The notes under the pieces: model-generated
Databases searched by the model: none
What the model was told of the DNA's origin: nothing
The model's input: the letters and a program-made list of their open reading frames with translations, nothing else
Source: an uncultured Planctomycetia bacterium
Lineage (GTDB): Bacteria; Omnitrophota; Gorgyraeia; Duberdicusellales; 4484-171
NCBI GenBank assembly: GCA_964483625.1
Contig: CAZABB010000003.1
Location: 21,895 to 85,894 of the forward strand
DNA: 64,000 nucleotides
Direction: 5' to 3'
Position numbers and translations under genes: made by a program
Shown: piece by piece, positions 1 through 60,623 of the stretch
How positions within the stretch are numbered: the stretch's first letter is position 1
Layout of the letters: each line of letters opens with the position of its first letter

Positions 1-26
1 TCTCTACGCTTATCGTCAAGCATGCT

Positions 27-176
27 TTGGCGATAATAGGATTTATACTGGTGTTTTTTATTTCGGGGGGGATGATCTTTTTCTCAGGCCAAACCGGTAG
101 TCCTTACTTTTCTCTCCAGGGGATGGCGGGAGTATCTCTGGTGTGCTTTCTCGGTATGGTGGCTATATCTTCTCCG
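27..176 (+). other. N-terminal hydrophobic region of two predicted TM helices. Possible membrane anchor or signal anchor
   Basis: Translation reads AIIGFILVFFISGGMIFF ... GVSLVCFLGMVAISS. Confidence 0.5.
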
Positions 177-3100
177 GCGGAAAGAACGATAAAATTCCAT
201 TCGGTACGTTTGAATACACGGGAGATGGTTCAATTTACCGATGCTTTGGATCAACTTATTGCTGAGCGAGGCATGCGGATAAGTGTGGTTATCGGGGGAT
301 TAAGGGGCATCTTCGGGGATGAGGAAAAATTTTCCTGGCTGGCTGATATCAGCGAGAAAGAATTTTCCCGCGCCGTGAATCGATGCCGTAAGAACCATCC
401 GGGAATCTTTATGTTTTGGAGCAGTTCGGAACTGGTTGTGGGAAGCGAAATCCACGGGGATATCTTCGAAGCGTTACAGCAGGCGCAATCTTTACGAAAA
501 GACGCCTATGAGATTTTGGCGAAGAGAGAACAGCGCTGGTGTTCGGTTTCCTGCCGGGAATTCGAGGAAATCGTCGCGGTGTGTATCGCCGGAGAAATCC
601 ATTCTTCTGTTTCCCCATTTACGGAGCTGGATAGGGAAAATTCCTATGGCCGGTATCAGAATGTGGAGGTGAATCAGGAGAGGGTCATTGCGCTTTCTGA
701 CGCGATCTCCGATACGATCGATGAAGTGGGCCCGTATACGCCGGAAGTATTCGGGCGAGTGCGGGAATTTGAGTCGTGCGCGTGGATCGCGGAAATAGGT
801 TCAGACGAATTTTTCCGGTTTGCCGGTTATCTGAGAAAGGAATACCGGTATGCTTTCGACGTATATTGTTCCCGTACCTATATTATCGGTGAACGGCAGA
901 AGTCTTATGTATGGGAAGCATTGCAGGCGGCGCGTTCGATTCGTTCCGACGCTTTCCGGATCATAGCCGAAGCGTATCCGGTATGGCACCAGATGGGTGA
1001 AGACGGATTTGCCGACATACTTGCCTGGTTAAAACGGGGCGATGTATCCTGGAGTTTCCAGCGGCAACTTGCCGATTTAGATGAACAGAATCATTACCGG
1101 GTATGGAAACGGCACGCTATCGAATTAAGCAAGGCGCGGGTTAACGCTCTCTATGAATTTCTTCAGGGAGAAGGAGATGAAGATGAGGTGGACGCGTCTG
1201 CGGCGGGGATTATAGAGCAGGTAGGAATCGGCATGACAGAGATTCTATCGAGTTTGCGGAGAGAAGAAAGCTTTACCTGGGCTGCTTTTCTCTCTCGGGA
1301 AGAATTACCGCATTTTGTCCGGTACGTGTCTAGGCACTATTCCTTTCCTTTTTCCTGTACGGCGGTTTCGCTGATCGGTCCCGTGCAGGAGGAGTATATT
1401 CTGGGAGCTCTTCGTCAGGCGTGTTCTGTCCGCAAAGACGCTCTGGCGCTTATTGCCGGAGAGCGGCCGCTCTGGAGAGATGTGAATGCGCGGGAATTTG
1501 AGGAGATAATCAGAAAAAGAGGGCTGGCTGTTTCATATTTTGCTGAAGACGTAGAGCATCTGGATATCAAAAATATGTTCACCTGGCTGGTAAGATATAT
1601 TGATCTCAACGACCGTATCCCTGAGATAAAAGAAACAGCGGCGGCTTTTTCTTTCGATCACGCCTCCGTAAGAAGAATAATCCCGCTGGGTGAATTGAAA
1701 CAGATCGGAGCCGACTCGATACTCGCTCTGCAGGATTACCTGTGTGACTCTATCCTGCACGGAAGGCCGCTGCAAAGCCTTGCCGAATATATGTATGAAC
1801 AGGGGGTACACGATTCATATGCCTGGATAAGCCTGAGTCGGCAAAAAGAACTGTTTGAGGGAGCTTTGCTTTTATTCCGCGCGCGCGGCAATCAGTCCGG
1901 AATGGAACGTTGTTTTCGGCACCTGGGTTTTACCTATGAGAGTATCGCGCTGACCGGCGCGACGCCGGGATCATCTCATCGGCAGCTTTATTATCGGGCC
2001 AAGGCTGTCGTCGCGCACCTGGAGGCGGCACAGGTTTCCCGGGATTTATGGCGAAAGGGGATTCCTTGTGAGCCGGGACAAAGATCGTCCAGTTACTGGG
2101 AGGAAGCGGTCGACCGTCTCTGTAACGCGATCGAAGTGATGTATCGTGAGGACGAGCAGAGAGTGCTTGATGAACAGGATGTGCCTTTGTTGGCGCGCCA
2201 GTTTAGAGGCGGGTTACACTCTGTAGGGCTGGAGGACTGGCTGTCGGCTGGAGAGCGGAGAGACATGCAGGAAAAAATTATATGGAGACAATGGTTTCGT
2301 ATGGTGCAGAGATTGTCCCGGTCGATGATTATGACTTCCTATATCGATGCCCTCGATCCTTCTGACGAAAGAATGCGTATGGATGTCTTGCGCCGTGAGA
2401 GTGAGACCTTTTCTCTGGCTCATCGCGCTTATGACGCGATAGAACAGGTATGTGCCGCAAAAAGCACGGGAGAACGTTTCCGCGATGATTTCCGCGCGCT
2501 TCATGCTCCGTATCGTGCCGTTTTTGCTGAACGGCAGGCGCAGGTAGTGGCGCACGTGGCCGAAGCGGAAGAAGTGATAGATCGGATACGAACCCGGCAG
2601 GGGGAAGTCTACGCTGAATTCATGCGTTCTCTCCTTGACAGTATTCAGCGCATTCTGCCCGAGGATCATTACCAGGAATTCGTATTGGATAAAGAAGGAG
2701 GCTTACTTTACGGTATTACCCTGTGTCAAAAGGCGCTGGCATCGGTCGATAAGAGATGTTATCAGGGGCATCGCGTGGATATCTGTTATCTCGTCGCTAT
2801 GGCTATTTTAGAGAGCCTGTTACCCCGGAGCGGATTGGAACGTGCCGCGTATGCCCGGGCGCAGCTGGCGGCTCCGATCTTGGAACGGGCCATTTTCCCT
2901 GCGCCGGATTCCACTGCGCCGCAGCAAAAAGAGAAGAAAAGGGAGTTCAATGCCCGGGTGATAAGGGGGGTCAGGGATCAGTTTGGCCGTAAGAAACTTC
3001 ACCGGGGAGAACAGCCGTGCATTGAGGAAATATTATTGATGGATGCGTGGGAGATGATGACGACACCTTCTTTGCGTATGGGAAGGCTTTTGCGTCAGGT

Positions 3101-6100
3101 AAGAAATATGCTTGAGGCGGGGAAACTGCCGATTATCGTTACCGATAAAGATTATTCGTTGATCGAGGTGGTCATTGATCGCCATATGTGCCAGTTGCTT
3201 TTGGCGTTTTTTGAATTAGTGTGGGATCGTTTCGGCATTTCTCTGCCATTCATCATTCTTACCAATAATACGAAATCAAATACCATGAAAACGGTGTGGA
3301 AGATTCTGATGGAAGAATTCGAGCAGAGATATCATCATCTGTCTGAAAGCGGGAAACGGAGAAAAAAACGTGAATTATTCGGCAACTTCATCATTAATTC
3401 CTGCGGCGGGCAAGTCTGGGTATGGGATGAAGCGGCAGACAGTGAGGAATTCCGGTTCATTGAAGAGCTGACGATGGAAGACGAAGTCGTTGCCGTCGTC
3501 CGGGAGGGATTTGATTGTCTCATCACCGAATATACCGATACTACCCGGTATGCTCCCGGGGAATGCATGCCGGTTCATCCTTACGGTGAAAGGATAGATC
3601 TTCGTCCCGGCGTTTCCGGCGACATGATCGGGATGACTCTTAAAATTCCCGGCCGGGATATTCCCAAAGATGAAAAGCGGCAATTCGATCCCGATAAGAC
3701 AAAACGGCAGATATGGAAAAAAGCGCTTTGGAGCATTTTAAAAGAACTCTGTCATGGGCTTGAACCGGATCTTGCGGAAAAGGTGAAAAGTCTCACCATA
3801 GAGATCGGCGGGACAACTTCAATCGACGTGACGGTGGGAGATAAGCGCCGGCGGATACAGCAGGTCATACGGCAGCTCGCTGTCCGTATGGAACTTCCGG
3901 AGGACGAAATAAAGAAAAGAATATTGTATTTCGGTGATGAATTCGATGTTGACGGCGGGGATTTTACCTTAATAGGACTGGTAGCGTTACTGGTGAATTT
4001 AGGGAGGACAAAGGTCGTTGCCGCCGAAGCGGTACGTGCCGGCCACATCTTCGTCAATCCCGAAAGCGACGAGCTTATCGGTCCGGAGCGGATGCGTGAA
4101 TATCTGAAGGCATTGATGGTACTTATTAACGTATTGCTTTCTCCCGATATATCTCCCGACGCTCTTCGGGAAAACATCGGGGAAGCAGTCCAGCCCGAAA
4201 ACTGGCATCTAAGCTCGTCCGTGGAAGTGGGGGCGCTCATCGAGCGGTATTTTATGCTCGATGCCGATATGTGGGAGTTAATACAGGATGTCGCTCGGCA
4301 GGGAGAGGATATTACAAGATTTATTGAAGCATTATATCAGTGTGAAGATTATGACGATATTGTCGCAGAAATATTACGGTCATTTTTCGCCCGGGAGCCT
4401 GAAGATGCCGCTCCCGACCATGATATCTTCATCGGTTTTGTCCGCGCCGATATCGCGTATCAGCCGACAGAACAGCGAGTTCTCCATGCAATTGAGTGGC
4501 AAGCGACGCTGAATGAATGGATAGGACGTTCGGATGATATAAGGGAATATATTAATATGTATCAGGTATTGAGAGATATGTTTGATGATTTTCTTCATGT
4601 ATCTTATTCGGAAAACGAATCTGGTATGAGAAATATCCCCGGACAAGGTGTTATCTCCGAGGACGGCCTCTCTTCCGTGGCTGCAGGTGCCCTCACCTTT
4701 GTCTGGGGTGTCTTTATGCCGCATGCGGCCGGGCCGAATTACCCACCAATCACGGGAGAAAACGAAAGCGCAGTGATTATCCTTGTCGTATCGGGATTGA
4801 TCCTTGCCGGTTGGATAGCTCTGGTATTGTTCCGGCAGGAGATATTGTTTTACAGTATCCGGAAACAGGCGCCGCCGTTGACGATACGGATAGTGATCCG
4901 GGTACTTTTCCCGCTTGGTTCTTTCCCTCAATGCGTGCTTGTCGTCGGTCCCAGCGGTGTAGGGAAAGACAAATTAACCGGATCATTATTTTCCCGCTAT
5001 CCGTCTCAGTTCACCCTGCTTCGGTTGACAACGACGCGCCGGCCCCGCCCTCAGGAAACGGATAATCCTTCAATGAAGAAGAACTATATGAGCCCGGAGA
5101 AATTTTCGGCTATGGTTAAACAGAACGCGTTTCTCATGAGCTGGGGTAACTATACCCATGCCTATGGATTGGAAGAACGGGAACTAAAACGATGTATCGA
5201 AGCGAGAAAGACCGTCATCATCCATACCGCGTCTCCCAAGGGAGTAAGACGCTGGAAAAAAGCTCTGCCTCAGGCAAAAGTCGTCCTTGTCTCGCCGGTT
5301 CCTATGGTATCCAGCCCGCTCCGTCCCGAGGAAAGAGATCAGGTAAAAGCGGTTCTCAGGCACAGGATGAGACAGAGAGAGGCTTTGATGCAGGCTGTGT
5401 TTGAGGTTAGGTTAGAGAAAGGAATAAAGCTCCTGGACGCGTTTCGTCGGGGAGAACTTGATTATGACGTGTGTGTCACGAATGGAAAAAATTCCGGTCT
5501 AGAAAGAGTCCAGCATGAATTTTGCCGGACGATTATCTCTGAAATTCAACCTCAGCGTTATGCGGGGCCGTTGATGGTAGGGGTTGCGTTAGGGATCGTT
5601 GTGATGGGATTGGCGAGCCCGGCCGGTTTTTCCGCGACCTTGGAGTTCTTTCTCCTAATGATCTTCCTGGGGATGATGTCCCCGGTCCGCGGCGAAGAGG
5701 ATCAGCCGTCTCCCGCTCAGAAAAAAGTCGTTCTTTTATTGGAGGAACATTCAGTGACTGGCGGTGCTATTTCGGAAATACCTTTAGATGATTCGATGAT
5801 ATTACGGGATAAGGTGGGAGTAATTGCCTTAAGAGAGCGGGTGGCTCGGGAAAATATCCGGCAAACGACCGGGCGGGGAGTGCGGGCGCTTGAGGGTGTT
5901 CTGAGAAGACCTGACGGGGGAAGCAAGGTCGAATCGATTGCCGCAGAGATAGCTCAGGCATTGACCGAATCCTTTATCTGGCTGGCGCAGGCTCCGGTTG
6001 AAGAAGTGATTCAACGGTTGGACTGGGTTCCCGTCTCTCTCGAACGGATAAGGAATATTGTTCAGGGTGATTCTGTTATCCAGATCGTGGGAGGAGTGGT

Positions 6101-9100
6101 AGAACCGTTGAATTTTTCCCGTCTCTTATGCGAAACAATGAATAGACAGGCCGGGAGATCTTTATCATATACGCTTTCTCCTTACCCCCGGACCGAAAAT
6201 CTCATTGGTCTGGCTCGGGGATTAGGTAAGACAGGTTTGCTTCGGGAGATAGCTGCAGCTTACCCTGAAGCGGAGACTATTCGCGTCCCGGTAATTGACG
6301 TGGGACGGGCTTTTATTAAGGTGGGATATGCCGAGTTTCGCCCCAGCGGCGTGTTGCTGCGGTTGGATTTAATCAGCAGTGTGGAGAACCGGTATATCGA
6401 TACTCGGATGCCGGAGAGAGGATATGAATTTAGCCTCAATACTCTCCTGAATACTCTTTTCCGGTGGGCGCAAGATCAGAAGGAATCAAAAAATCTCCAG
6501 CTGAGGCAAAAAGAGATTATTGTCAGTCCTTATCAGGGAATAGCGGTTTCTACTTCTATCCCGGAATATGTCCCGATTATTGAAAAGGAATATTTCATGT
6601 CGGAACGGTGTTCAGAAGGAGCATTTTTATTTCTAACCGATAATGTGCTTACCCAGACATGGGCAGCCACCCGGGAAAATACGTTGATCCTTACTCTAGG
6701 CGTTGAACAGTCTCTGGTATTGTCCCGTGAAGATCCTGAACTTTTCCCTTTAGCCAAAGCATTTGAAGTCGTTGATTGGATACGGGTGAATGAATGTATT
6801 ACTCTGATTCAAAACATGGGGTTGCTGGAGGAACCTCCCCTGGTGATGGTATCCCGCTACTGGGATCTTTACCGGAGATATCCATTGACGTTTCAGGAAG
6901 CAAAACGAATGCTGTCCACGCCGGCCGGCGTAAACCGTAATTATGAAATATGGAGCTGGCGTTCCGATCTTCATCCTCAGAAGACGTTACCTTCTCCCAG
7001 TGTGAGCATGATTTTCTGGCAGACATTGCTTACGTCCTGGCTGGAGCGTATTTATCCCCAGATACAGGAATTTGAAGACAGGTACGGTACGATATTCAGT
7101 AACCAGTTCGAACCGGGAGAGAATATGACCGGATATCTTACGCAGTTGCTCATCGGCGTTATGGTAGACTTGAAAGTCCGCTGTCCCGATCTGCTGAGAG
7201 ACTGGGGGGAGACATACGGGGATCATGAATTAAAGCACGCCTTTATGGTCATCCGTCAGGCTTTGGATTTTACCCTCAAACAGATAGCATATCAGCAGAG
7301 TACCGTCCCGGAAGATATTGCGGTGATTGCCAGAGAGCAGGCCGATGTGCGGGCGATTATCGCCGGTTCCCTCATCCATGACCTGGGACAATTGTACGGG
7401 GAGCCTCATGAGTGGGTCGGGGCCCGGCTGGCCAGAAGAGTTTTTATCTATTTAGGTATGCACCGCCGGGCGACAATCTATGAAAATATGACCCTGTTAC
7501 AGCTTGTCATGATGATTATTCTCAAACATTCTTCTTCCAGTAAGGTGCCTCCCGCATGGGATGATCCGCTGGAAGTGCGTATCGTCCATGCCGCCGATGA
7601 TTTTCAGCAGACGGTTGAACGTATTCATATTGTCAATAAGCGGAGAAACCGCTCTTTCTTCAAACGGGCCCGTACCACCCTGGCGCGGGTCGCGTTCATC
7701 GCGCTCCGTTCCGGTTCCTACAATGATATGAAAGACGGGCAGGGAGATGTGGATACGTTTACCACTCTCCTGAAAGCCCTGCTCATTATCACCGATCCCC
7801 AGGCGTATTATCTGGAAGTAGCGCGGCAGGAAGCGACGACTACGCTCCAGAGGAGATTCCTCAATGACTTCTGGGATCTTATTCAGCGGGAAGTCTCTCC
7901 GTGGGAATTGCCTTCGGTGATTGCGGCGGCAGAGGACTTTTTCCGCATCTGGGCTCAGTGGCGGGCCATGCCGGAGGTTATATACGCCCGAAAAGAAAAA
8001 TGGACAGCCGAGAGTCTTAAGAGCGTATTGAACGAATTAGGATGGTGGGATAAGATTGAGCCCCGTCTGAAAAGATCCGTTCCATCGCGATCCTATCCGG
8101 TCGAGAAAATCATCCCCGCGGTGATAGAAGAATACGGTCCGGCCCGGCTTTCCGAAACGGACGTTTCTGCCGACTCCTATGTGGCCGGCATATTATCGGA
8201 TTGGCGGGATATCGTCAGTGACACCGTGCCGCCGCAAAATCTTCCGATGGGATGCATGCTGTTCCTCTTGTCTCCGATAATACTTCCCCCGGACGGAGAG
8301 ATCCTTGTCAGAACAGATTGGATGTCTCTTGTCGTGCTATGCGTCGTATGTTTTTTGATTGTCTGGTGTGTCCGTCGCTCGCTGCGGCAAGATTGGATAC
8401 ATATGATGCTAGTGTTGGGAGGAGTATCGGTCGTTTGTTTAACTTACGCCGAAGCCTACGGGCCTTTTATGTGTTTGTTCCTGGGAGCAGTCCATATGGG
8501 ATCCGAGAAACGCGATGTATCCTCGACCGACGGCCGTATTGTTCTTGAACCGATCAATCTGGGAACGGTACGTCAGCACAGAGATCATATTCATTCCGAT
8601 CTCCTTTGGTTTGTCCTGCCCGATTTTCTCGAGCACGGGATATTGGATGGGTGTCGTCGTCTTATCGTTGAAGAAAGTGATAACTGTATTGAGGTCAAGA
8701 TAAAAAACCGTGATTTGATTTTGAGATTACCTTCCCGGAGGTTGCCGGAAGATGCTCTGCGGCGGGCTCTGAAGCTTTTCTTTGTTCAGCGTGAATACGT
8801 GGGGGCCGACGGAGATTCTTTGATGGTCGATATGAGAACACGCAGTGAGCTGGATGAACGTTACCGGCAGGCGTATGAGCAGAGAAACGAACGGGTAATC
8901 GACGCTTTCTTATGTGATCCCCGGCCGGTGAAAGCGGTCAATATGCTCACGCGTGATGGAATGTTTATTCGTAATCATCAGGAACTCTTTCCTTATATGG
9001 CCCTTCTGGCGGTACAGTATCAATATCAGTGTATTAACCACGACTATACTATCGAAGCGGATGAGTACGGGACGGAGCTTCCCGAAGCGATCGTAGATGA

Positions 9101-12100
9101 AGTGTATATAAATTATCCCGGCCGGGAAGACGCTGCGTTTGAAATGGTACGTGAAGCCGCAAGAATATTAAAAGATAGAGGCGTGCTTACCATAGTCTCC
9201 GGACAGATAAATTTACGTCTTGTCGAAGAAGAACTGAACGATATGGGGTTTTTCGGCTGTGAGATAACCCACGTCCAGGAAGAATATCCCCGTACCGGCT
9301 ACCAGGATGACGGATATCGGTATATGCTTCGGGCGGTGAGGAGACGAATGGATGAAACCAGAGGAGAAGATGGGAGGATTTCTCTGGCTGGAGCATATAG
9401 AGAAGCCGTGGCGATGATGGAAAGAGCGGCGCAATTCATCGGCGGCAAAGGCATTATCGTCACCTTGCAGTTTATCGAGAATTACATGCGGATATGGGCA
9501 CGTGATGGCATTTTCATCCTCCTGGCGGCGTTGATTTCCGGAAATTCAACGCTTATCGCCGCCGCCCGGCATATACTGACGACGTTACGCGACCATCAGA
9601 TAAAGACCGAAGCGCAGTTCGAAACAGTGTTCGACCGGGGCCGTATCGATGAGTTCGGCATTAAGCGGCAAATGGAAAGGATCAATCCCATAGGGATGAT
9701 CCCCAGCAACGTCGCTCGCAACGGACATACCAGTTACGGTATGCCGGAGATCGGCATTTTACGCGCCGATCCCACCCTTCTCTATATCGTCGGTTCTGCC
9801 ACGTATTATCGTTTTTCTCAGGCGAGGGAATTTTTAGATGAACATTGGGAATCAATACGGCTTGCCATGCAGTTTCTCGAAAACCAGTTCGGCCGTGAGG
9901 GGAAAGAATTGCTCTATACCAACCGGGCGGCGGATTGGGCCGATGCGTTTATCCAGAAAGGGAATGTGTTGTATATCAACACGTTATGGTATAAAGCGCT
10001 GATTGATTTTGCTTACCTCCATGGCCGATTGGGTAATAGCCGGGAGGCAGAGCGATATGGAGGGAAAGCACAGCGAGTCAAAGCGGAAATACAAAAAGAG
10101 CTGTGGATATATCGGGATGGAGACGACTATCAGGGGGGTCCCTTTTCGATATACGCGACGATGGGGGTGCCGTTGCCCAAGAAATTCGGATATTTCGCCC
10201 ATTTCCGCGATCCCGATCTTGATGACCAGTTAAGCCAGAAATATTACGGCGGATGTGATGTCATGGGGAACCTGCTGGCGGTCCTCTTCGGGATTGCCGA
10301 TACCGGACAGGCAGGACAGATTGTGGATTTCATCATATCGATTTCTGATAACCGCTATCCCCTGGCTCCGGCTCATTATCCCTTTGTCCGAGCCGAGGAC
10401 CTGAAAAAATTACTCCTGGCGAGGTTTAATTTCCGCGAGGAGGAAGGAGAGTATCATAATGGCGGTTTGTGGACGGTGATTACCGCTCTCCTTGTCGCAG
10501 TCCTGGCCCGTGTGGGATATGCCGCACGGGTTAAGGGAGATCCTGAGCAATCCGAGAAATATTTTCGTCTTGCCGGACAGTTTTTATCGGGCATCAAGGA
10601 CGCCAATCAGAGAGAGGGAGATACGGGATACCGTTATTATGAATGTCATCGCAACGATCCGGAAAAAGAAAACAGGCCGCAGGGGACCTATGACTTCATT
10701 CCCAGCGCCGCCGCGTTTGTCATCGCCTCTCATCAGTACGTATGCTGTTTGCGTCAGGTCGGCCGGATGCCGTCCAATAAAGAACTGGAGGATTTGACGG
10801 AGAGAGTAAGTGTTCCCGACAATTCTGTGTCGAAAACATACGGGGAAGAATTATTACCGAAGGAGCACGTATTTTCGTGCGTTCTCTTCATCCTCTTGAG
10901 CGTATTCCTGATGGGGCAGGGGGCAGTCGACGGGACGCATCTTTCTTATCTGGCCGCGTTTTCGGATGTTTTCGCGGCCGGTTCCTTTTTCTTCGTCTTT
11001 CTACTCGGAGCATGTACGGAAAGAGATGATGATACGGGAAGAATTCTGAGGCAGATGAACCGTTTGAAGCGCAATCTCGAAACCATTGCGCCGGATGAGC
11101 GGGAGGAAATCTTACGGAGCTTCCGGACGTATCTTTATTCATTACGTGAGAATCTTACCGCTTATGATATCAAACTTGAACGGCATGTAACCATTGATGC
11201 CGTCATTGGCGGGATCAGGGCCGATGTCGGGAACGCGGTGAGGGACAGCAGGTTCGTACGTAAATTCAAAGACGAATTGACCGATATCGTGGACGATACC
11301 GACCGGGTTGTCGCCGTCACCCCGGCAGGTTTCGTGCATATGTTCGGATTGCGCCATCGAAGTGTCAATGCGTTTGTCATGAGTCCGGCCGGTGACGTAG
11401 TATTGCAGCGCCGGGTACATAATAAAGCCGAAGCGAAACGCCTCTCGATTTTCGGAGGGCATGTCGCGGCCGGGCAGAGCTATAGGGAGGCGATAGAACG
11501 CGAATTGCTGGAAGAGCTCGGTCTGGACACGATCGGAAAGGTTCTGGGCGGCACATTGATTCTTCTCGGTGAAGAAGGACAGTTCCGCAACGACGCCCCG
11601 GCGAACAACGAGTTCCGGTCGCTCTATGTGTATATTTTGACCGGGCGAGAATATGAGCAGGTACGGTGGATGCGGGGCGATATCAACGAAAAGAAGAGTC
11701 AATATACCGAAGAAGAATTCCCCGACTGGATCGAAGTACAACAGAAGAAAAGAGAAGGGTATGGCGAAGTCTGGGGATACCATTTCGCGTCTTTAGAATC
11801 AGTCTTTGCCGGCTCAGGCCTCTCGGTCGAAGAAACGTATTCCGACGGCACGCTTACCGAAACGGTCGATTATACCCACGATCTTCTTCTTCCGCTCGTG
11901 CGGGGGAACGCTCCTTTGCGGGATGACGGGCGGGGATTTGATCTGCGAAAGGAAATTGAAAACGTTTTGCCCGATATTCCGGGAGTGTCATTCTTCGCCG
12001 GGCTTATCCCCGTGCTTTTTCTCGGAACGGGTTACTTTGCCGGTATGTCCGATATCCTTTCATCCCTTCCTTTTTTCTCATTTATGGACCTGCCGGTGTC

Positions 12101-45100: not shown

Positions 45101-48100
45101 TTGGATTGTCCGTGCCGGCGGCACGGATTTAGTGAGTCGTTTCAAACAGACCGCAGGTACGTCGCACTATCCGGAGGTCGTCATCTCTCTGCGTCTGATA
45201 GAGGAATGTAGTGTAGTTGAGGTACGTGATGGCAGGGTACGCATTGGCGCGGGAATTACCCAGAGCGATTTAATTGACCGCCGCCGAAATCCGAAGTTGG
45301 TCGAGTTTTTCCATACCGTTTTACCGGCATTGCCGCAGGTGATCGGCGTGATGAGTTCCGGCCGGATCCGGGAGAGCGCCACGATTGTGGGAAATGTAAC
45401 TCGCGCGTCGACTCGCGGCGATTTGATCCCGGTCTTGATGGTGATGGGTACCGAAGTGGTCGTTGTGCATCGGAATGCCGACGGTCGTATCGTCGAAAGA
45501 ACGGTTCCTTTACCGGAATTTTTATGGGCGGTTCCTCGCTTGAAAGAAGAAAAGCAAATCGTCGTTGCGATTAAAATCCCTCTTGCCGCGCGGCGTCAAG
45601 TCGTATTCGCAAAAGTAGGCGGTCGGCAGACTGAAGGTCAGTTCAAATGTAAAGTGAATGTGGCCGCCGGCTGGGAGCATCCGAAACAAGGCTTTCCGGT
45701 ATTGCGGGTGGCCTATGGCGGTATCCGGCGGCGGGCGGAGCTGATCGATCCGGGACTTACTGCGGGGTTAGTACAAAATTGGTATAAACAGGATGGGCAT
45801 CTTTCCGATGAGGACCTTAGGGAATTTGCCTGTGCCAGTACCGTCCACTATACCGATGAACAATATCATCCCGCGTTTCATGATCGGATTCACCGCGGAT
45901 ACGCCCAGCGGGTTGCTTTTACGCAACAGATAGGAGCGGAGTTGTTACGAGAACTTTTTCCTGAAAGTACTGCAGACTATCCTGTTCCCATCGAAATTCC
46001 GGCATCGTTTCATTATCATCGGCCCATGCGTCAAATAACGACAGGAGGAATTGATACCGCTGATCGTTATCCGGTAATGACGGCCGATACCGTCGTTTTT
46101 GATATCCTTTATGGTCACCGTTCGCTGCGGGTAATCGAGGATATTCCCGCTTACGTCCTCGCGCGCGCTCAATGGAAACAGCTGTTTCGTGACCTTTCCC
46201 GCCGTTTTCCCGACGATGCGGCGCAGAAATTAATCAATACCGTGAAAAGGCGGATCGCTCAGGAACGAGAGTACGCAAAAAGACAGGCGGTAAAAGCACA
46301 GATAGCGACGTTGGAGCCGACGGTAAAGACAGAACATACGTATGTTCCTGATGTGGCCCAACGTTTACGGGCGGTATTCGGTGATGATTATTATCACGTA
46401 CTGCCGTTGCGCATCCGGGATATCCCACGGGTATGGGAGAAATACGGTACTCATTTTGTGCGCCGCGATGAAGACGGGGCGTTATGTTTCCGCGCCCGGC
46501 TGAAGCGTATCGGAGTGAGTGAAGAAATGGCTGCATTTCTTTCTGACCCGGTACAGCGGGGTGTGGTATTTGGTAAAGACGTTCCCCGGGAGATAACCGA
46601 CGAAGCATTTCAACAAATCAGATTGTTTTATCTCTGTGATAATTCTGGTTTTATTGCGAGTCCTAATACCGTAGTGGGCTTTGTCTATGCCCGTAATAAA
46701 AATGATCTATCCCGCATTGTACAGGATATCGAAGTTAAACTGATGCCGCTTGATCCGGTAACGACGATTGCCGAGGCACCCGCATATCAGGACAGACAGA
46801 CTTATCAGCGGGGCGCGGAAGCACACGTCCCGGAAGGGGAGAATTCCGGTGAACTGCGCAGGAATATCGGCATGAGAAGTATTCCGACCATCGGCCAACG
46901 CAGTGAATTGGCCGTCTTTAATCTTTTTGACCAATCCGCTGTCTCGGAAATCACGCTGTTCAGCGATACGCAGAAGTCGGCGCGGACTCTTGTCTGGCTG
47001 AGAAAGCTTACCGGTGTCGCTGCGCGGCTGGTTATGACTCCGGCTGCCGGGGCGTTTGGAAAAAACCTGTTTGTCGACGCGCCGCTGGCCGGATTCTTGA
47101 TTCAAGGAATGCGACAGAAAATGAGGAGCGTCGCCGCGGTTTCGCGTCGAGGCGCGTTTTTGCTCGATTCTGAGAAAATATTTGACGCGCGCAGTGTGGG
47201 AGCGAATTTCCATTTGGAGTATACGTATGACGAACAAGGGAAAATAAGAGCACTCACGGCACGTATCGACGTGGATAATGGATCTGTGCCGCTGATAGAG
47301 GAGGTCAATGAAGAGTTGTTGAACCGGTTCAAAATATTGACCGTGCCGATGATGGATATCACGGCATTTGGGTATCATACCAATATCGAATGGTGCCCGT
47401 ACGGGATACGGGGATTTAACGCCGAGCTGTCGTTGACGGTAATGAATCAGATGATTGCCGATATCGCCCGGCATATTGCGCAAAAATACAACCGGGATGA
47501 ATGGGAGGTGTTCTGGGAGGTGTGGCAGATGAATTTGCCGGATGACCCGCGCCTTACGGCAGTTATCGAAAAAACGAAACAACACCGTCTGCCGAAAGAA
47601 GATGAAGATTCGTTTCTCGGCCAGGCATTGGTGATCAAACACGCGGTCTTTCCCGGTATGTCCGCGCGCGGCAGTCTCATCCGGCATGGGCCGGGACAAT
47701 GGGGGATGAACATCCCTGCCTATGAGTTCGGCACGAAACTGGGAGAGACGTTTGAGCAGGCGTTCAATGATATCCTTGGCCAGCGGTTTTCAGCACAGAA
47801 ATTGTTACACATCAGTCATCGGGAAGTTATCTGTGCCGGACCGGACGAGTCCGGTGATGATGTGGTCGGTCTCAAAACAACCGATGCTTCCGCTTCGACG
47901 GAAAAACTGCAGGCACTCGCTCAGGATATTATCGAGAGCGGGTTACAAGTCATCCGGCAGGATGAACGGTTTTGCATTGAGGGAGATCCCAAATCAGTGC
48001 GTATCTTTGATCATCAAAGCAATCGACCTGTAGAATATTTTGATGCGTTGGAGATGGCGATGACAGAGCTAAACCGGCGGGAAATCCAGGGGAGTATAGA

Positions 48101-51100
48101 CTGGAAGATTACCGATACAAATATTATCGATCATTCCGCGATCGGCACCGCACAGATGCGCGTTGAATACGATGCCGAGGCGGGGCGACTCGCGGTTACG
48201 GATATTGTCATCGTAGCGTCTGCCGGGAAGATCATGAGCGAAGAGCGTGCCGCCGAAAATATCCGCGGCGGGATTATGCAGACATTGCCGTTTCTTATCG
48301 TCGGCCGCGACCATGATGAATACCGCCAGCATTCCTTGGATCGTGCCAATGTCGTCATCCATTTTGTGCCCGGCTTTCTCGACCATGCCATCGGGATCGG
48401 GGAATTCCCGGTACCGCTGACTATGGCTGCCGGACTTCATGTGCTTGGCCAGACTGACGCCGACATCACGGGCCTGCCTGTGCGGGAAGAAACTTTGTTT
48501 CATGAATCTCCGCTGGCGGCAGGAGGGGGGCTTTTATTGTTCCTTCCGGCAGAAGGCCTCCTGTTCGAGGCAAAGTATTCCTTTCCCGTTCTCTTTATCG
48601 GTGCCGTTATCTTTATCTCCGCGGCAATCGGTTTTCTTTTCTTTTTGCGGAAACAAGAAGGTTCAATTATCCCTATCCTCGATGCGTTCTGTCCCTGTGT
48701 GACGGTATTGTCGTTTTTGATTCTGGGGTATGCTTTCTATCGCCATACTTTCTCAACGTGGTATGTTCTTCTCAGTGTAACCGTCGGCATTGCCGCGTTG
48801 ATCGCCATGCGGTGCGCGAAAATCTCATTGGAAATCGCTGCCCAGGACGTAGCGGCACTCAAACATTTCGGGTACAAAAAACGCGAGTGCCTGTGTACCT
48901 CGGGAATCTATTCGGTATTGAGACACCCTTATTATAATATGTTCCGTCTTTTAGCGACGTACAGCATCCTTCTGTACCCTTCTCTCTACACGGTTCTTGG
49001 CGGAATGTTTATTTTTCTCTATACCGAATATGCGGCGCATGTTGAAGAACAGTATCTCGAGGCAGAATACGGCGATGAATTCCGCATGTATCGCGATGAG
49101 GTTCCTGCCTGGCTGCATCAGTTTCCCGGCCGGTTTCTCTTGGTCCTTACGGCAATGGCGGTGGTGATCTATGTTCCCTGGCCGGCCGTAATTTCTTGGT
49201 TTGTCGTCGCCGGACTGTTCTTTCTGGGAGGGATCGATGATGTGGGACGCGACAGTAGATCCGAGAATAGAGACTGTGTGTGTTGCGGTTTAAAGGATCG
49301 TTATACCGATGTATTCCTTGATGAGGCCGGGGTATGTAATTTCTGCAGGGATTTTGCACGCCGCAAAGACACCGATGAAGGTCTACAGAAAGTTTTGTCG
49401 GAAAACAGGGAGGAACAACTGGAATATCTTGGCTCTCTCTTTGCCGCTGAAAGAAAGAGAACCGGGCAAAGGGGCCGTTCTTACGATGTTCTCGCCATGG
49501 TCAGCGGAGGAAAAGATAGTATCGCGATGTTATATGAATTGATAGCGATACACCGATTAAGAGTCTTGATCTATACCGATACTTCAGGCATACAGACCTC
49601 GACCGGGGTCGAAAACATTAGGGATGCGATGCAGACATTACATATTCCTCCCTCAAATTGGGTACATAACGATACGAATGCGGGGGTAGAAATATTTACT
49701 CCTTACCTGAGAAACAGGCAGTTACGGAATGCATTGCACCCGTGTACTTTCTGTAATTTTTTTCGAAAAAATCTTGTTGTAAGAGCGTATGAAACCGCAG
49801 CGCAATACGGTATTACCCTTATCGTCGACGGACAATCATATAAGGATATGGCCATATTCGATAACTATTATGCTCAACAGAGGCAGATAGCGAGCCGTTT
49901 TATCAGAGAGCATCCGGAAGAGACAGATTTGATTTCGGAACGTTACGGATACAGTGATTTCTACGATAGAGACTGGCTGCGGGAAAGATTCCCTTATATC
50001 CGGCAGATTTCGTACTGGCAGGAAATCTTTTACGATATGGACTATTATGTGGACTTTATAAAACGTGAGCTGAAATGGAAGGCGGATAGAGAGCCCTGTA
50101 CTACTTTATGTTATATCCCGGAACTTAAAAGACTCCTGTGGGAGGTTTTTGAAATAAACGGCGGGCAGAACGGATACATTCCGCCTCATGAGTGGATAAA
50201 AGCTTTTGAACGGCGTATCGGAGCAAGACGGAAAATTATGAACGGAAAGGCCTGGCCTGGTTCGGAGGCTGAAACGATACAACGGATCAAAGGAATACTG
50301 AGCCTTTTCGATATGGATATGGAAGATTTACTGGTTCAGTTAGACCAAGACAAGCAACGGAAAGCCAGAGAAATATTGGCGAGATTCCAGGGAGAAAAAG
50401 AATCTGCTCAAAAGGGATTTGCTTTTCTGCCAATATTGGTTGTTCCAGGAGCGATAACGGAATTTCAGCAGTTATCTCCTCCCATCATCCAGTATATCCT
50501 TATTTTTGTTTTCCTCCTGATACTATCTCTGTATATTGCTTTTCTTCTGCGGGAAAAGAAAAGGTTCTCTAAAGAAAGGAAATATTCACAGCGTTTTGAA
50601 CATGAAATTGTTCTCCCCGCCCACGAATCATGGCAGGCAGTGAGAGGGGTATTGCTGGATACGGTACGGGATGGTTGGCGAGAGCTATCGGCATATGGAA
50701 TTGAGACCGGCAGGTATCAGAATCCCCAAAATTGGCGGTTTAGTGAAATCGAGGGTGTACAGCGGTATATTCTGCGGACACTTTCGGGAGAAAGACGGTT
50801 CCTGGCGCTGGTTACCTTAAGCTTTACCCGGATGCTCATATCGGCCTTTTCTGATCATTGGGAAACCGCCGGGCCCCCGCAATTACTTCAGACCTATCTG
50901 GATGAGAAAGAGCGCTTCGTAAAGTTGACCCGGGCCGCCTTAGCCGGGCTGACGCCGCGGGAGACCGAACGGTATCTGGCGGGAGACGAGGCTGTGGTTC
51001 ATAAAGTCTTTCGTGCCGTTTCTCCTCTATCTCCCGAACGGGTGGGATCGTTCTTTGCCCGGAAAAAACACCGGGATCTTTTAACGTACTTTTCGCAAGG

Positions 51101-54100
51101 CCCACCCGAACATTCGATAGAAACCGCGACCCGCCGTTTTTTTGCTTCACAACGGTTTTTCGGATCATCACGGTATGCTTCCCGGATAGCGATTGTCCGA
51201 ACCCATCTCCATACCTGCATTTTCCACGGAATAGATCATTCCAAGACCGATGCCGTCATCGATATTGTCGGCAGGGAATTGGAAGAAAATCCCCGCGCGA
51301 AAATCCTCATAGTCTGTCCTTACCTCGTAACCATGGACGCGCTGGAACATGCGTTAACTCACGCTCCCTTATTGGAAGGAAAAGCGCACGTCGTTACCTA
51401 TCGCGCTTCCACCGGTACTCCGCACCGGCGTGCCATATTGAGCCGGTTCCGTCAGGCCGAAATACTTATTGCCCAGACAGCAAAAATGGCCGAAATCGGT
51501 ACGTTACCGGATACGGTCGATGTCGTTATTTTTTATGCGCCCGATTCGAACGAGGACAGGATCATAAACAGATTCTCCTCTCTGCCGGAACGCGTCCATA
51601 TTCTGATCGCCAAAGGGACCAAAGACGTGGGACTATCCCGTATTGCCGGAGAAAAGATTACGTATCCTCCAGCGGCGTATGCATTTCTTCCCCTGCTGGC
51701 TGGCGGATATCTGACCGGGGATTTCGGATACAATATGTGGCTGCTTGGATCATGTTTTCTTGCGTGTCTTATCCTTGCCGGAATTCAACTGCCTTTGTGG
51801 CCCGACGCTTCCGGCCGGGACGACATTTCCCGGCGGGAAAATGAAGATATCGTGCTCACCCTGGCTGATGGAGATGAGTTCATCGTTGGCAACCAGGGCG
51901 TTCCTTATCGGATATTCGGAATCGACATTCTTACCTGGACGATTGCCCGGGGAATCGCCCAAAGAGAGTATATCGAGTGGGTCGAGAGGATGATAGAACA
52001 GAGAAAGACTTTGTTACATACGATGATGCGTAGACGTTCCCGGCCGCACGCCGGTAATATGAGCGAAATCGAAGAAAAAATAAAATGGTGGTGTGACCAG
52101 ACAGGAATGGCTTTACCCGGTAACTGGCAGACCTATAAATCCACGCCGCGCCGAGAAGATCGTATACGCTATCTTGATGCCTGGATTGAGGTTTTTCTCG
52201 CCGAAGGATTATGTGTCCAGACCGATCCCGGGGTCGCCCGGGCCTATCGTCTCTTCGGCATACAGAGGCTCTGGCAGGTGCCTTTTTGGGATATTCCCAT
52301 CTGGCCGGTTACCGAGGAAGGGATAATACGGGGAGATCTGATCGGGTGGATGAGAGACTCTCGGATTCAGATTCCCGGCGAATACTTTCAAGCGGAGAAG
52401 AAATCGCTTGTTGCATTATTCGGGTCGCATCATTTTTCCGCATCTAAAAAAACGCAGGGATTCTCGCCGGGAACCTCAATCGTTCCGGCAATAATTTTAT
52501 TTTTTATTTTTATGCTGTATGTATTTTTCCGGTCCGGGCATAATACTGTCCCCGCAGGAGAGGATCCCGTGGCTTTGAACCTCTCGTTTGCCTGGGCCGG
52601 AATCTTTTTCCTTCCCCTTGCCATGGGAGTTTGCACAGAGAATGAAAGTCGTGAGGTTATTGCCGCTGAGTTGAGAAAAGATATAGGTCAGTTTGAAAAG
52701 AGACGGCGTATCCTGATCGAGTCGCTTCGCGGAGGATCTTCATCCGGCCGCCCGGCAGAATTTGGCAGTACAGAAGAAGTCCAGGCGGCGTATTGGGATT
52801 TCGTGAACCGGACAAACAGTGAAATCAAGCACATCGAAGAACACATTGCTCGGCTGGAAGAAAGGTTGGCCTGGTTGGGGACAGGGTTCTTTGCGAACCT
52901 TTTCCCGTCTCATGTCGAATCTATCCTTGCCGAAATCGACCGGGGAAATCATCGGGAAATAGAACTGGATGAAAATGATCCGGTGAAAATGAAAAATATT
53001 CTGGTACGATTTTTTGTGATGTCTGAACGTATCATCTCTGTCCCGGCATTTTTTATCTATGCCCGTTATCGGGAAGGAACCCTTGAGATTTATTTATCTC
53101 GGGAAACGTACTCACTTTTTACGAAACTCTTTTCCGAAGCTGAACTTCTTATTGTCTTGCAATCGGTCTCCCGTCACGAATATGCGGAGACAGTCGAGAA
53201 AAAAAATCATCTCCAGGCGGTCGCGGGCCAGAAAAAAACCTCCAAATATGCAGCGGTGCAGGAGAAGCTCGAGTCTATTCAGGATGAATTTTCCCGTCCG
53301 TCCGATATCCGCCGGGAGATAACAGGAGTAAAAAAGACATTGGTGATAAGCGTCGCGGTTTCGGTAAGCGCCGGTATCCTGTTATTACTGCTTGAGGCGT
53401 TCCTTGGAGAGGGGACGATGTATACCCCGGGTATATTGTGTTTTGCCGCCGCGACCCTCATCGGCATTATGTATTGGTACGGCTTACCCGTGCTTGCTGC
53501 GATACAATCGCTGAACGAAAGAACAATGCAGGTCGATGACTGCGGATATTTAAGCGAGGGGTATCATAGCGGGGAGTCCGGGGCCGTCCACGATATGGAA
53601 TTTCTGGCAACGGAACAGACCATATGTTTCGTGGGAAGAAAAGCGATGCGGGAGATGACCGGGTGTGACGACCATCTTGCTCATACCGACGCGGATTCGA
53701 ATGTGCTGTATTTTCTTGGCGGAGAGGTGGAAGATCTCTATGAACGGGGAATGATAACACCGGTAACGGCGATGCAGGAATATATCAAAAAACAGGCGCT
53801 TCGATTCGGCCCTTCCTCGATAGTGAAATATGTGACGCGGCAAGAGATGCTTATCATCTCAGGAAGGATCGGCTCGGGAGTATTCATTGAGGAGATGCAT
53901 AACGTGAAGATATTCTATATCCTGGTGGGATATGTTCTGGGCGAAGAAGAAAAGATAATGACTGAGATCCATCAAAAAATCATTTTTCTTCTTATTTTTT
54001 ATTCCCGCATGAAACAAAAGTGTACGGCTCTTTTATCGTGGTGCTCCGATTCGATATTTGCCGGTACCCTTGCCTGTATTGTGACGATACTCTACTCTAT

Positions 54101-54515: not shown

Positions 54516-54683
54516 AACGCCGGACCGCGTTAGGATTCTGGGAAGAAATACACCCGGCCCTGGCTCAGATCATCATCGACAAAGTGAGGCGGAAGATCAA
54601 TCGTTCGCTTTCCTGAGGTATCCGGCTGGATCGCGTATTGCCCGCCATTGCCCGATAGCGGTGGTAATTTTACTCTTTCCAGT

Positions 54684-54703
54684 TTGTCTCGTTATGATAT
54701 AAT
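54684..54703 (+). promoter_or_regulatory. Candidate sigma70-type promoter for hisI (extended -10 TGATATAAT), followed by an SD
   Basis: tgatataat at 54695-54703 with a poorly spaced TTGTCT upstream. SD AAAGGAGG at about 54718-54725 and ATG at 54736. Confidence 0.3.
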
Positions 54704-57190: not shown

Positions 57191-57478
57191 ATGCAACCTG
57201 ACGCCAATGTCGCTATCGCCCAGTTTTTACCGCTGATTTTTCTTTTCGTCGTCTTTTACTTTCTGCTTATCCGTCCGCAGAAAAAGAAACAGGCTGAACA
57301 TAAAGCTCTCATCGAAGGACTCAATAAAAACGATGAGATCGTAACGGTCGGAGGGGTACACGGCACGGTAATCAATACCAAAGAGAAGACGTTCGTGATC
57401 CGGGTCGATGACAATGTGAAATTCGAAATCGATAAACAGAGTGTAGCCTATTTAAAAAAGAAACAGAATAATGGTTAA
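57191..57478 (+). CDS. yajC: Preprotein translocase subunit YajC
   Basis: A single N-terminal TM helix, FYFLLIRPQKKKQAEHKALIEGLNKNDEIVTVGGVHGTV. SD AAGGAGG. The 3' end overlaps the secDF start. Confidence 0.9.
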   Translation: MQPDANVAIAQFLPLIFLFVVFYFLLIRPQKKKQAEHKALIEGLNKNDEIVTVGGVHGTVINTKEKTFVIRVDDNVKFEIDKQSVAYLKKKQNNG

Positions 57479-59636: not shown

Positions 59637-59694
59637 CAAATCAAGAAGCAACTTAATGCCTATACGTATCTCATCCGCTCTTTACTACACAAAC

Positions 59695-59719
59695 AGGTGA
59701 CACCTAAAATGTATAGTTA
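59695..59719 (+). repeat. 25-bp direct repeat, left copy
   Basis: AGGTGACACCTAAAATGTATAGTTA. It ends 2 nt before the transposase ATG. Confidence 0.9.
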
Positions 59720-60591: not shown

Positions 60592-60614
60592 GTGACACCT
60601 AAAATGTATAGTTA
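60590..60614 (+). repeat. 25-bp direct repeat, right copy. It overlaps the transposase stop codon
   Basis: AGGTGACACCTAAAATGTATAGTTA. Confidence 0.9.
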
Positions 60615-60623
60615 AGCGTTGAT

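Follow-up and report, generated by a model that had tools for sequence, protein, structure and literature searches.

Introduction

Very long genes for membrane-spanning proteins that carry many enzyme domains have been described from the bacterial phylum Omnitrophota. Those called Archaeovorins are Omnitrophota giants that combine numerous transmembrane (TM) helices with enzyme domains (West-Roberts et al., 2023, 10.1101/2023.11.21.568195), including glycosyltransferase, methyltransferase, glycosyl hydrolase, peptidase, radical SAM, NUDIX, HAD and glycolytic enzyme domains, often together with a divergent SecA_DEAD domain. The same study located C39 and S8 peptidase domains close to the N-terminal ends of these giants and suggested that cleavage takes place, and its authors themselves called an outside placement of such domains doubtful (10.1101/2023.11.21.568195). 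Here we examine a window of 64,000 nucleotides (the whole stretch of DNA that was analysed, from contig CAZABB010000003.1), in which a single open reading frame (ORF) extends over more than 54 kb. We consider it likely that this ORF is the 3′ part, at least 54.5 kb long, of a genuine Omnitrophota giant gene, of the Archaeovorin type or of the kind termed ‘multi-enzyme metabolic cluster’.

The latter term comes from a 2026 preprint that catalogues proteins of at least 10,000 amino acids (10 kaa), and it denotes a class of proteins (class 1) in which distinct Pfam families number 21-50 and TM helices 56-331 (10.64898/2026.06.07.730766). One class 1 example, KR0015B_u4168876_114, has 147,155 aa and 43 distinct Pfam families, and class 1 examples come from the class Gorgyraeia in groundwater. 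In the same catalogue, TM-only is the commonest topology class among Omnitrophota proteins of at least 10 kaa, the hexokinase family PF03727 occurs among the giants, in one that is filed under the tandem-repeat class, and type II/IV secretion or pilus genes lie near 13 of 14 giants (10.64898/2026.06.07.730766). West-Roberts et al. reserve the word ‘giant’ for proteins of at least 30 kaa. ORFs that exceed 20 kb occur in 77 of 116 Velamenicoccia genomes (Seymour et al., 2023, PMC10066038), and a 39,678-aa protein with 42 TM helices from Velamenicoccus archaeovorus LiM, for which peptides have been detected and which is the type example of the Archaeovorins, is cited in that article.

Results

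A reading frame open from the edge of the window

Frame 3 of the window is open from base 3 onward, and its sole stop codon is a TAG at 54513-54515. The ORF is thus as follows.

3..54515 (+): giant ORF, at least 18,171 codons, left end open at the window edge

An initial annotation, made from the letters alone, had listed this ORF as 27..54515 (+), which corresponds to 18,162 aa. We retain that numbering for amino acid positions, with the understanding that it gives a minimum length. Position 27 itself does not hold up as a start. The TTG found there has no Shine-Dalgarno sequence, unlike the downstream hisI, rpsP, yajC and surA-like genes, where AGGAGG-type sites are present. The TTG also sits in the middle of a hydrophobic helix, and the frame is already open at base 3, so that the gene must be cut by the edge of the window. 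The TTG is not a credible start; the gene continues 5′ beyond the window, and its true length exceeds 18,162 aa.

The claim of a single long ORF is confirmed. Approximately 850 stop codons would be expected by chance over this span and none is observed in the ORF frame, in comparison with 895 and 837 in the +1 and +2 frames and 392-753 in the minus frames. The GC fraction at codon positions 1/2/3 stays near 0.58/0.40/0.53 and is constant across all 3-kb blocks. When a codon log-odds model trained on seven flanking housekeeping genes was applied in windows of 150 codons, the ORF’s own frame scored best in every case (721/721). Unannotated and annotated parts yield similar scores per codon (0.206 and 0.230, respectively), and the coding signal shows no dips at domain junctions. 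Self-BLAST of the ORF reveals no internal repeats other than two glycosyl hydrolase (GH)-like domains and two MttB domains. Rfam, tRNA and tandem-repeat scans of the window gave nothing relevant, the last returning one trivial DNA tandem repeat. An antisense ORF of 330 aa at 46707-47699 (-), which lies inside the giant gene, is taken as spurious because it has no family match and the sense strand carries a strong coding signal there.

Could such a frame be an artefact, created by a chimeric assembly or by a code in which stop codons are read through? An identical copy of the downstream hisI-trpE-rpsP stretch was found only on a 2.4-kb Logan contig (run SRR7048225), which is a point in favour of an artefact. 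Yet stops are missing from one frame only, composition and codon usage are uniform, and homologous ORFs of great length are present in independent assemblies produced by other studies. Reassignment of a stop codon was rejected, since the flanking genes terminate with TAA, TGA and TAG and hence none of the three has been reassigned. We therefore regard an artefact as extremely improbable.

The coding signal also bears on another proposal of the initial annotation, namely that the ORF is a run of cistrons that have lost their stops. According to this proposal, genes that were once independent would still be initiated internally. The domains do look like free-standing enzymes, and a few in-frame Shine-Dalgarno sites with an ATG, for example at aa 6135 and 10142, fall just after TM clusters. 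However, such sites number 10 in frame versus 17 and 4 in the other two frames, so that there is no excess, and several of them are located inside domains. The ORF shows no surplus of internal promoter-like sites over shuffled sequence, and terminator-like sites are 0.6-2 standard deviations above the shuffle mean and mostly consist of weak 5-bp stems. Moreover, approximately 25 domains share one frame, the coding score never falls as it would between genes, and relatives keep such domains in ORFs of thousands of residues. Taken together, these results disfavour the fused cistrons, which we consider very unlikely.

Unrelated enzyme domains in a single chain

Pfam, NCBIfam and PDB-sequence searches were run on four overlapping tiles of the ORF, and motif scans were added. 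Almost all of the motif-based domain calls of the initial annotation are supported by these searches, with the catalytic motifs intact. There are approximately 25 different enzyme domains, mostly present as single copies, and only the MttB and GH-like domains occur twice. Approximately 29% of the residues fall in assigned families. The domains of the N-terminal half are listed here in order.

4932..5411 (+): guanylate-kinase-like domain, aa 1636-1795 (PF00625, 55.9 bits; PDB guanylate kinases; motif)
aa 2434-2527 (+): weak HD match (domain search)
9657..10739 (+): six-hairpin GH-like domain 1, aa 3211-3571 (weak PF17389, PF04685 and PF17167)
11352..11633 (+): NUDIX domain, aa 3776-3869 (PF00293, 41.5 bits; motif)
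12702..13445 (+): SidJ-like pseudokinase/glutamylase-like region, aa 4226-4473 (PDB SidJ, E=1.5e-5; NF033874)
16446..17594 (+): mannosylglucosylglycerate-synthase-like (MGGS-like) domain, aa 5474-5856 (NF041101, 97 bits, below cut-off)
18036..18377 (+): orphan RAPP-motif module with a single strong TM helix, aa 6004-6117, helix 6085-6103 (hydropathy)
20277..21566 (+): hexokinase, aa 6751-7180 (PF00349, 196 bits; PF03727, 215 bits)
22038..23492 (+): MttB domain 1, aa 7338-7822 (TIGR02369; PDB 2qne and 9yce, ~210 bits)
23670..24170 (+): class-I glutamine amidotransferase (GATase), aa 7882-8048 (PF00117, 76.7 bits; motifs)
25842..26447 (+): Glu/Leu/Phe/Val (ELFV) dehydrogenase-like domain, aa 8606-8807 (PF00208, 29.1 bits)
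27084..28565 (+): MttB domain 2, aa 9020-9513 (PDB 7xcl and 4yyc; PF06253)
28584..28940 (+): orphan module common to Omnitrophota long proteins, aa 9520-9638 (44% to P0128, 40% to P0134; no Pfam match)
29064..29525 (+): radical SAM domain, aa 9680-9833 (PF04055; motif CNLLCQGC)

In the hexokinase, the catalytic and binding motifs LDLGGTNFR, GFTFSF, NDTVGT, MESG and GSGIGAA are all intact. It falls in a Pfam family of eukaryote type, and its identity to vertebrate hexokinases is 36-41%. The best match (44-46% identity) is to an Omnitrophota protein, P0003, an ORF fragment that fills its 4.3-kb contig and carries two tandem hexokinase copies. An N-terminal piece of P0003 resembles, by eye, the sugar-phosphate deaminase/isomerase type. 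Both MttB domains are matched by PF06253 (558 bits summed across the two stretches), and the first is not of the pyrrolysine type, as evident by the lack of an in-frame UAG. The GATase retains its GICGGHQ and HPE motifs. Two domains depart slightly from consensus: the guanylate-kinase P-loop reads GPSGVGKD, with D in place of the usual S/T, and the NUDIX domain has an intact REUxEExGU core with the first E of the Nudix box changed to Q.

The C-terminal half continues in the same manner with a different set of activities.

aa 10945-11019 (+): DUF4922, directly before the EamA-type region (PF16269)
33174..34697 (+): polytopic EamA/DMT transporter-like domain with ~10 TM helices, aa 11050-11557 (PF00892; hydropathy)
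35559..35690 (+): HAD phosphatase motif I region, LILDIDGT, aa 11845-11888 (weak PF08282; motif scan)
36981..37307 (+): PrmC/HemK-type S-adenosylmethionine (SAM) methyltransferase, aa 12319-12427 (PF05175, 41 bits; TIGR03534, 54 bits)
37794..38786 (+): uridine-kinase-like region, aa 12590-12920 (NF004018, 41 bits, below cut-off; motif)
42846..43571 (+): GDE_C/six-hairpin glycosidase-like domain 2, aa 14274-14515 (PF06202, E=2.8e-4)
44514..48290 (+): xanthine-dehydrogenase-like module with iron-sulfur (FeS), flavin adenine dinucleotide (FAD) and molybdenum (Mo) parts in one chain, aa 14830-16088 (PF00941, 87 bits; TIGR02963)
48591..49235 (+): ICMT/PEMT/LmtA-type integral-membrane methyltransferase, aa 16189-16403 (PF04191; TIGR04571; NF040696; hydropathy)
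49275..50096 (+): PP-loop domain, WbuX-like N-acetyl-sugar amidotransferase, aa 16417-16690 (TIGR03573, 55.7 bits, below cut-off)
51153..51647 (+): helicase C-terminal (RecA-like) domain, Hef-like, aa 17043-17207 (PF00271; PDB 1wp9)

Profile matches bear out the MttB, two GH-like, NUDIX, hexokinase, guanylate kinase and radical SAM domains that had been proposed from motifs. For two other proposals the outcome was mixed. An FeS-FAD-Mo redox module had been claimed, and its FeS and FAD portions are well matched: the 2Fe-2S part (aa 14830-14958) has intact cysteines and matches PDB FeS subunits with E=1e-17, and it is followed by the FAD part at aa 15000-15236. The two Mo-cofactor parts (aa 15641-15817 and 16018-16087) are both weak and yield sub-threshold matches (MoCoBD_1, E=2e-4). 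Likewise, of two HAD domains that had been called, one corresponds to a weak Pfam match, and the other is a DxDG motif at aa 13907 (nucleotide 41745) supported by motif alone. The only Walker A motif of the ORF, GAGGSGKT at aa 12590, precedes the udk match at aa 12834-12920. Upstream of the Helicase_C domain there is neither a Walker A nor a DEAD motor domain, nor a SecA_DEAD match (PF07517, E<=0.01). The GDE_C-like domain 2 shows weak self-similarity to the first GH-like domain.

Membrane helices between and within domains

TM helices were counted by hydropathy only, using Kyte-Doolittle and Hessa-scale scans, which gave 59-79 candidate helices, depending on the threshold, in approximately 25-30 clusters. 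All 19 of the TM clusters located previously coincide with hydropathy clusters. The accompanying statement that each domain is separated from the next by 2-10 TM helices describes many junctions correctly, and many of these are clean hairpins, but it is overstated as a rule. Three junctions carry a single helix, no TM helix separates the Mo from the FeS-FAD parts, and the region from aa 7307 to 9936, which holds MttB domain 1, the GATase, the ELFV dehydrogenase-like domain, MttB domain 2 and the radical SAM domain, has no confident TM helix between these domains. Furthermore, some clusters are membrane enzymes or transporters themselves (EamA, ICMT-like), and the rest form hairpins or single anchors that lie between soluble domains. 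Four TM features are listed here.

21717..21944 (+): strong TM hairpin at the hexokinase/MttB domain 1 junction, aa 7231-7306, helices 7231 and 7288 (hydropathy)
30177..31874 (+): cluster of six strong TM helices, aa 10051-10616 (hydropathy)
50493..50549 (+): strongest single TM helix, aa 16823-16841 (hydropathy)
53337..54215 (+): C-terminal pair of TM hairpins, aa 17771-17820 and 18010-18063, with an unannotated segment between them (hydropathy)

Even numbers of crossings separate the hexokinase from MttB domain 1 (two helices) and the radical SAM domain from DUF4922 (six strong helices). The single strong helices are at aa 6085 (18264-18335), between the MGGS-like domain and the hexokinase; at aa 12452 (37380-37448), between the methyltransferase and the uridine-kinase-like region; and at aa 16823 (50493-50549), between the PP-loop and helicase C domains. 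The distribution of lysine and arginine (K/R) residues gives some indication of orientation. For helix 16823, the preceding 15 residues include no K/R and the following 15 include eight. The bias places the helicase C domain and the C-terminal module M2 (described below) on the inside, and at helix 1584 it would place the 1,535-aa unannotated N-terminal region (aa 48-1583) outside.

Modules shared with other long Omnitrophota proteins

A HMMER search with the last 1,200 aa of the ORF as query retrieved 50 proteins at E<=1e-3, which match the following two orphan modules.

51822..52442 (+): orphan module M1, between two TM helices, aa 17266-17472 (HMMER homologues; no Pfam match)
52833..53312 (+): orphan module M2, aa 17603-17762 (HMMER homologues; GFFxN...H-x3-E-x6-H-x2-A)

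Approximately half of the matches listed exceed 1,200 aa, and ten are 4-7 kaa in length. Those 4-7 kaa matches that were looked up and carry a source name all derive from Candidatus Omnitrophota (7/7), several of them being partial ORFs that span their entire contigs. M1 is probably an external loop, because it lies between two TM helices and because its free-standing homologues of 267-758 aa (P0123, P0125 and P0133) begin with signal-peptide-like sequences. M2 is found in many of the 4-7 kaa Omnitrophota proteins, sometimes twice in each, and its G, its P and the pattern H-x3-E-x6-H-x2-A are invariant across homologues. These H/E/H residues could bind a metal; M2 has no credible Pfam or PDB relative and matches no known peptidase.

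One relative is especially informative. P0129 (MBD3265014.1, annotated ‘HD domain-containing protein, partial’) is a 6,485-aa protein of Candidatus Omnitrophota that has at least five modules in common with the ORF: the GH-like domain 1 (44% identity over 369 aa, or 48% over MAFFT alignment A2), the MGGS-like domain (29-36%), the RAPP module with its TM helix (50% over 82 aa, compared with 35% to P0134), Helicase_C (29%) and M2 (33%). By eye, P0129 also displays a guanylate-kinase-like stretch. The order of the shared modules differs between the two proteins, suggesting that Omnitrophota giant genes draw on a common pool of modules that are shuffled between genes. Comparison with homologous loci had been proposed as a way to see whether the domains exist as separate genes, and what is found is that relatives carry such domains inside ORFs of 4-7 kaa, not as separate genes. 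Further searches were less productive: a word-indexed search with the C-terminal 1,763 aa returned only two weak, spurious matches to nonribosomal peptide synthetases (NRPS; 9-19% of the query, E~1e-6), the same type of search with the unannotated N-terminal aa 48-1582 returned no match, and a metagenome locus search with alignment A2 matched 311 stretches, none of which encodes a relative.

P0129 also bears on the possibility that the product is a polyprotein, synthesised as a single chain from which a protease then releases separately anchored enzymes. Double-glycine motifs such as [ST]KSGGH are the kind of site cut by C39 peptidases. In P0129, [ST]KSGGH is present at least 12 times, in several cases immediately before a domain start, and SGGH occurs seven times against 0.05 expected. 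The responsible enzyme might be of the C39/S8 type and located in the unseen N-terminal part or encoded elsewhere, and peptidase domains of this type are known near the N-termini of Omnitrophota giants (10.1101/2023.11.21.568195). Several single helices of the ORF, such as that at aa 16823, resemble signal anchors with the N-terminus out and the C-terminus in, and the invariant H-x3-E-x6-H of M2 could serve in metal binding. However, the check for processing sites that had been recommended gave no support, as the visible 18,162 aa contain no protease family (Pfam, NCBIfam) and no recurrent junction motif. No 4- or 5-mer is over-represented in the ORF, SGGH-type motifs are absent from it, junctions included, and M2 lacks resemblance to any known peptidase. 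In addition, cleavage that takes place after insertion would leave the topology conflicts in place. A polyprotein differs from a lasting single chain only in its post-translational fate, and both of these explanations remain live, although we judge processing to be somewhat unlikely.

Flanking genes place the locus in the Omnitrophota

Downstream of the giant ORF lie hisI, trpE, rpsP, yajC, secDF, a Y1 transposase gene, mfd and a surA-like gene. The closest relatives of SecDF (58-70% identity) are encoded in metagenome-assembled genomes (MAGs) of Candidatus Omnitrophota, and the order hisI-trpE-rpsP-yajC-secDF-mfd-surA is kept in more than 20 Omnitrophota loci. On the basis of these SecDF relatives and the conserved seven-gene order, the window is assigned to the phylum Omnitrophota. 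Some of the MAGs bear the label ‘uncultured Planctomycetia’, and the label of one is Methanosarcinales. The same seven-gene block is found, at 57-72% identity to the window (33% for the surA-like gene), on a contig (JAIWAR010000022.1) that was binned as ‘Methanosarcinales archaeon’; this is probably a mis-binned Omnitrophota contig, and the mis-binning could reflect co-occurrence with a methanogen host.

The spacer between the stop codon of the giant ORF and hisI includes a potential boundary, as judged from consensus matches only.

54644..54703 (+): terminator-like hairpin (54644-54665) and promoter-like site (54676-54703)

The promoter-like site reads TTTCCA, 16 nucleotides, then TATAAT preceded by TG. 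Its presence together with the hairpin before hisI suggests that the giant gene forms a transcription unit separate from that of the his/trp genes. The yajC-secDF genes (57191-59636) begin 2.7 kb downstream of the giant ORF, and this proximity looks coincidental rather than functional because the gene order is the same in relatives that lack the giant. The IS200-like Y1 transposase gene (59722-60591), which encodes a helix-turn-helix tail, is situated between secDF and mfd, two genes that adjoin each other in more than 20 Omnitrophota relatives; it is missing from those relatives. It is flanked by 29-nucleotide direct repeats (59691-59719 and 60586-60614) and accompanied by a near-palindrome at 60575-60615. 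No secretion or pilus genes are present in the 9.5 kb downstream of the giant ORF.

Discussion

A possible mode of action and its difficulties

We find it highly probable that the ORF is a real gene and a member of a known Omnitrophota kind. The best reading of its product is a single membrane-threaded polypeptide, whose function and processing we infer. The ORF would be transcribed and translated as one unit, and the chain would be inserted co-translationally into the cytoplasmic membrane. TM hairpins and polytopic domains would then tether the enzymes that depend on ATP, SAM, NAD, FeS clusters or glutamine to the cytoplasmic face. A minority of segments would be located outside, namely M1, possibly the 1,535-aa unannotated N-terminal region, and perhaps the glycosidase-like domains. 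The result would be a membrane-bound enzyme array whose substrates would be sugars, nucleotides, quaternary amines and further small molecules, in an organism believed to rely on a host or on prey. It is the presence of sugar and nucleotide kinases, phosphatases, a NUDIX domain, glycosidases, MttB domains, an amidotransferase, a Mo-oxidoreductase and a DMT transporter that suggests that small molecules scavenged by a host- or prey-dependent cell are handled at its membrane. This specific topology and function are put forward tentatively.

Several observations weigh against so complete a picture. Approximately 70% of the ORF is without family assignment. The visible 18,162 aa contain no signal peptide, no C39/S8 peptidase and no SecA_DEAD domain, the N-terminus being outside the window. 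Single-sequence AlphaFold2 models of aa 16842-17232 and 48-650 were unusable (mean pLDDT of 41.6 and 35.9, respectively) because homologues usable in alignments are lacking. Relatives that share the downstream gene order have no ORF of at least 1,100 aa in the 7-10 kb upstream of hisI and carry ordinary-sized ORFs where the giant sits; tblastn with tiles of the giant gave no match in them, and no close orthologue was found. The giant is lineage-specific at this locus. Finally, a strictly all-cytoplasmic arrangement is not self-consistent with the crude hydropathy predictor, because odd single helices split pairs of cofactor-dependent domains. The same topological difficulty has been met in published studies of Omnitrophota giants (10.1101/2023.11.21.568195).

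In an alternative model, most of the soluble domains would be outside, where they could bind and digest the cell wall of prey as part of an extracellular coat or adhesin. Such a model has been proposed for the V. archaeovorus giant and for Archaeovorins (10.1101/2023.11.21.568195; PMC10066038). Here it is consistent with the two glycosidase-like domains, with the signal-peptide-like N-termini of M1 homologues, and with the K/R bias at helix 1584 that would export the 1,535-aa N-terminal region. ATP, SAM, NAD(P), glutamine, FeS clusters and FAD are not available outside the cell, however, and most of the identified domains need one or another of them. The ORF also lacks adhesin, dockerin, HEAT and TPR repeats, its downstream neighbourhood lacks the secretion or pilus genes noted above, and West-Roberts et al. 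doubt outside placements themselves (10.1101/2023.11.21.568195). For these reasons we consider a predominantly extracellular product unlikely.

A more speculative idea would speak to the topology problem. If Omnitrophota giants are built by shuffling a phylum-specific pool of modules, some of which form a built-in processing or insertion system, then the ORF would encode a polyprotein that organises itself and supplies both membrane faces with dozens of enzymes, each anchored separately. Candidates for such modules may be M2, the RAPP module with its TM helix, and double-glycine junctions like those of P0129. This arrangement would account for the odd numbers of TM helices between cofactor-dependent domains, and we regard it as quite improbable.

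The single membrane-threaded polypeptide bears on the question of how a small-genome bacterium can produce a chain tens of thousands of residues long, insert it and put it to use. The present ORF is well suited to experiments, in that approximately 29% of it, an unusually large share, is assigned, motifs are intact, long TM-free stretches hold several enzymes, and single-helix junctions offer tests of topology models. Likewise, M1 and M2, which recur in shuffled order across the long proteins of Omnitrophota, offer entry points for comparing the ways in which these genes are put together.

Relationship to known giant proteins

The architecture had first been described as unlike that of known giant proteins, in the sense that single copies of unrelated enzyme domains are interspersed with TM clusters in one frame. 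The description of the arrangement stands; the claim of novelty does not, given that Omnitrophota giants of the same kind have been described from 2022-2023 onward. With the classical giants, which comprise NRPS and polyketide synthases (PKS) on the one hand and repetitive adhesins (RTX, Big, cadherin-like) on the other, the ORF has only size in common, because its domains are unrelated enzymes and its chain crosses the membrane dozens of times. An NRPS/PKS megasynthase was rejected on the lack of condensation, adenylation, carrier, ketosynthase or acyltransferase domains (Pfam, NCBIfam), and a repetitive adhesin was rejected on the lack of Ig-like, cadherin or RTX arrays and of internal repeats (self-BLAST).

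The ORF passes the 10-kaa threshold of the 2026 catalogue; with respect to the 30-kaa threshold of West-Roberts et al., at least 18,171 codons are visible and the left end is open. It shares with Archaeovorins the phylum, a single ORF of tens of kilobases, many TM helices, and divergent sequence with large unannotated stretches, as well as methyltransferase, glycosyl hydrolase, radical SAM, NUDIX, HAD and sugar-metabolism domains. It differs from them in that the visible 18,162 aa, which do not include the N-terminus, have no SecA_DEAD, no GT1/GT5 glycosyltransferase, no HEAT/TPR repeats and no peptidase, in that its helicase-like part consists of Helicase_C only, and in that secretion and pilus genes are missing downstream. 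P0129 differs in module order and in the recurrent [ST]KSGGH motif, which is absent from the ORF.

The resemblance extends to the class 1 multi-enzyme metabolic clusters. These likewise combine many distinct Pfam families, none of which dominates, in a membrane-anchored, TM-dense chain, and they have kinase, NUDIX, methyltransferase and oxidoreductase content and a nearby transposase. The ORF has approximately one candidate helix per 250-310 aa, versus approximately one per 370 aa in the densest class 1 example. Its two MttB domains and its xanthine-dehydrogenase-like, SidJ-like, EamA and ICMT domains may set it apart from that class, a comparison made by description only. The ORF is therefore best placed not as a new architecture, but as a sequence-unique member of the Omnitrophota giants that have already been described.

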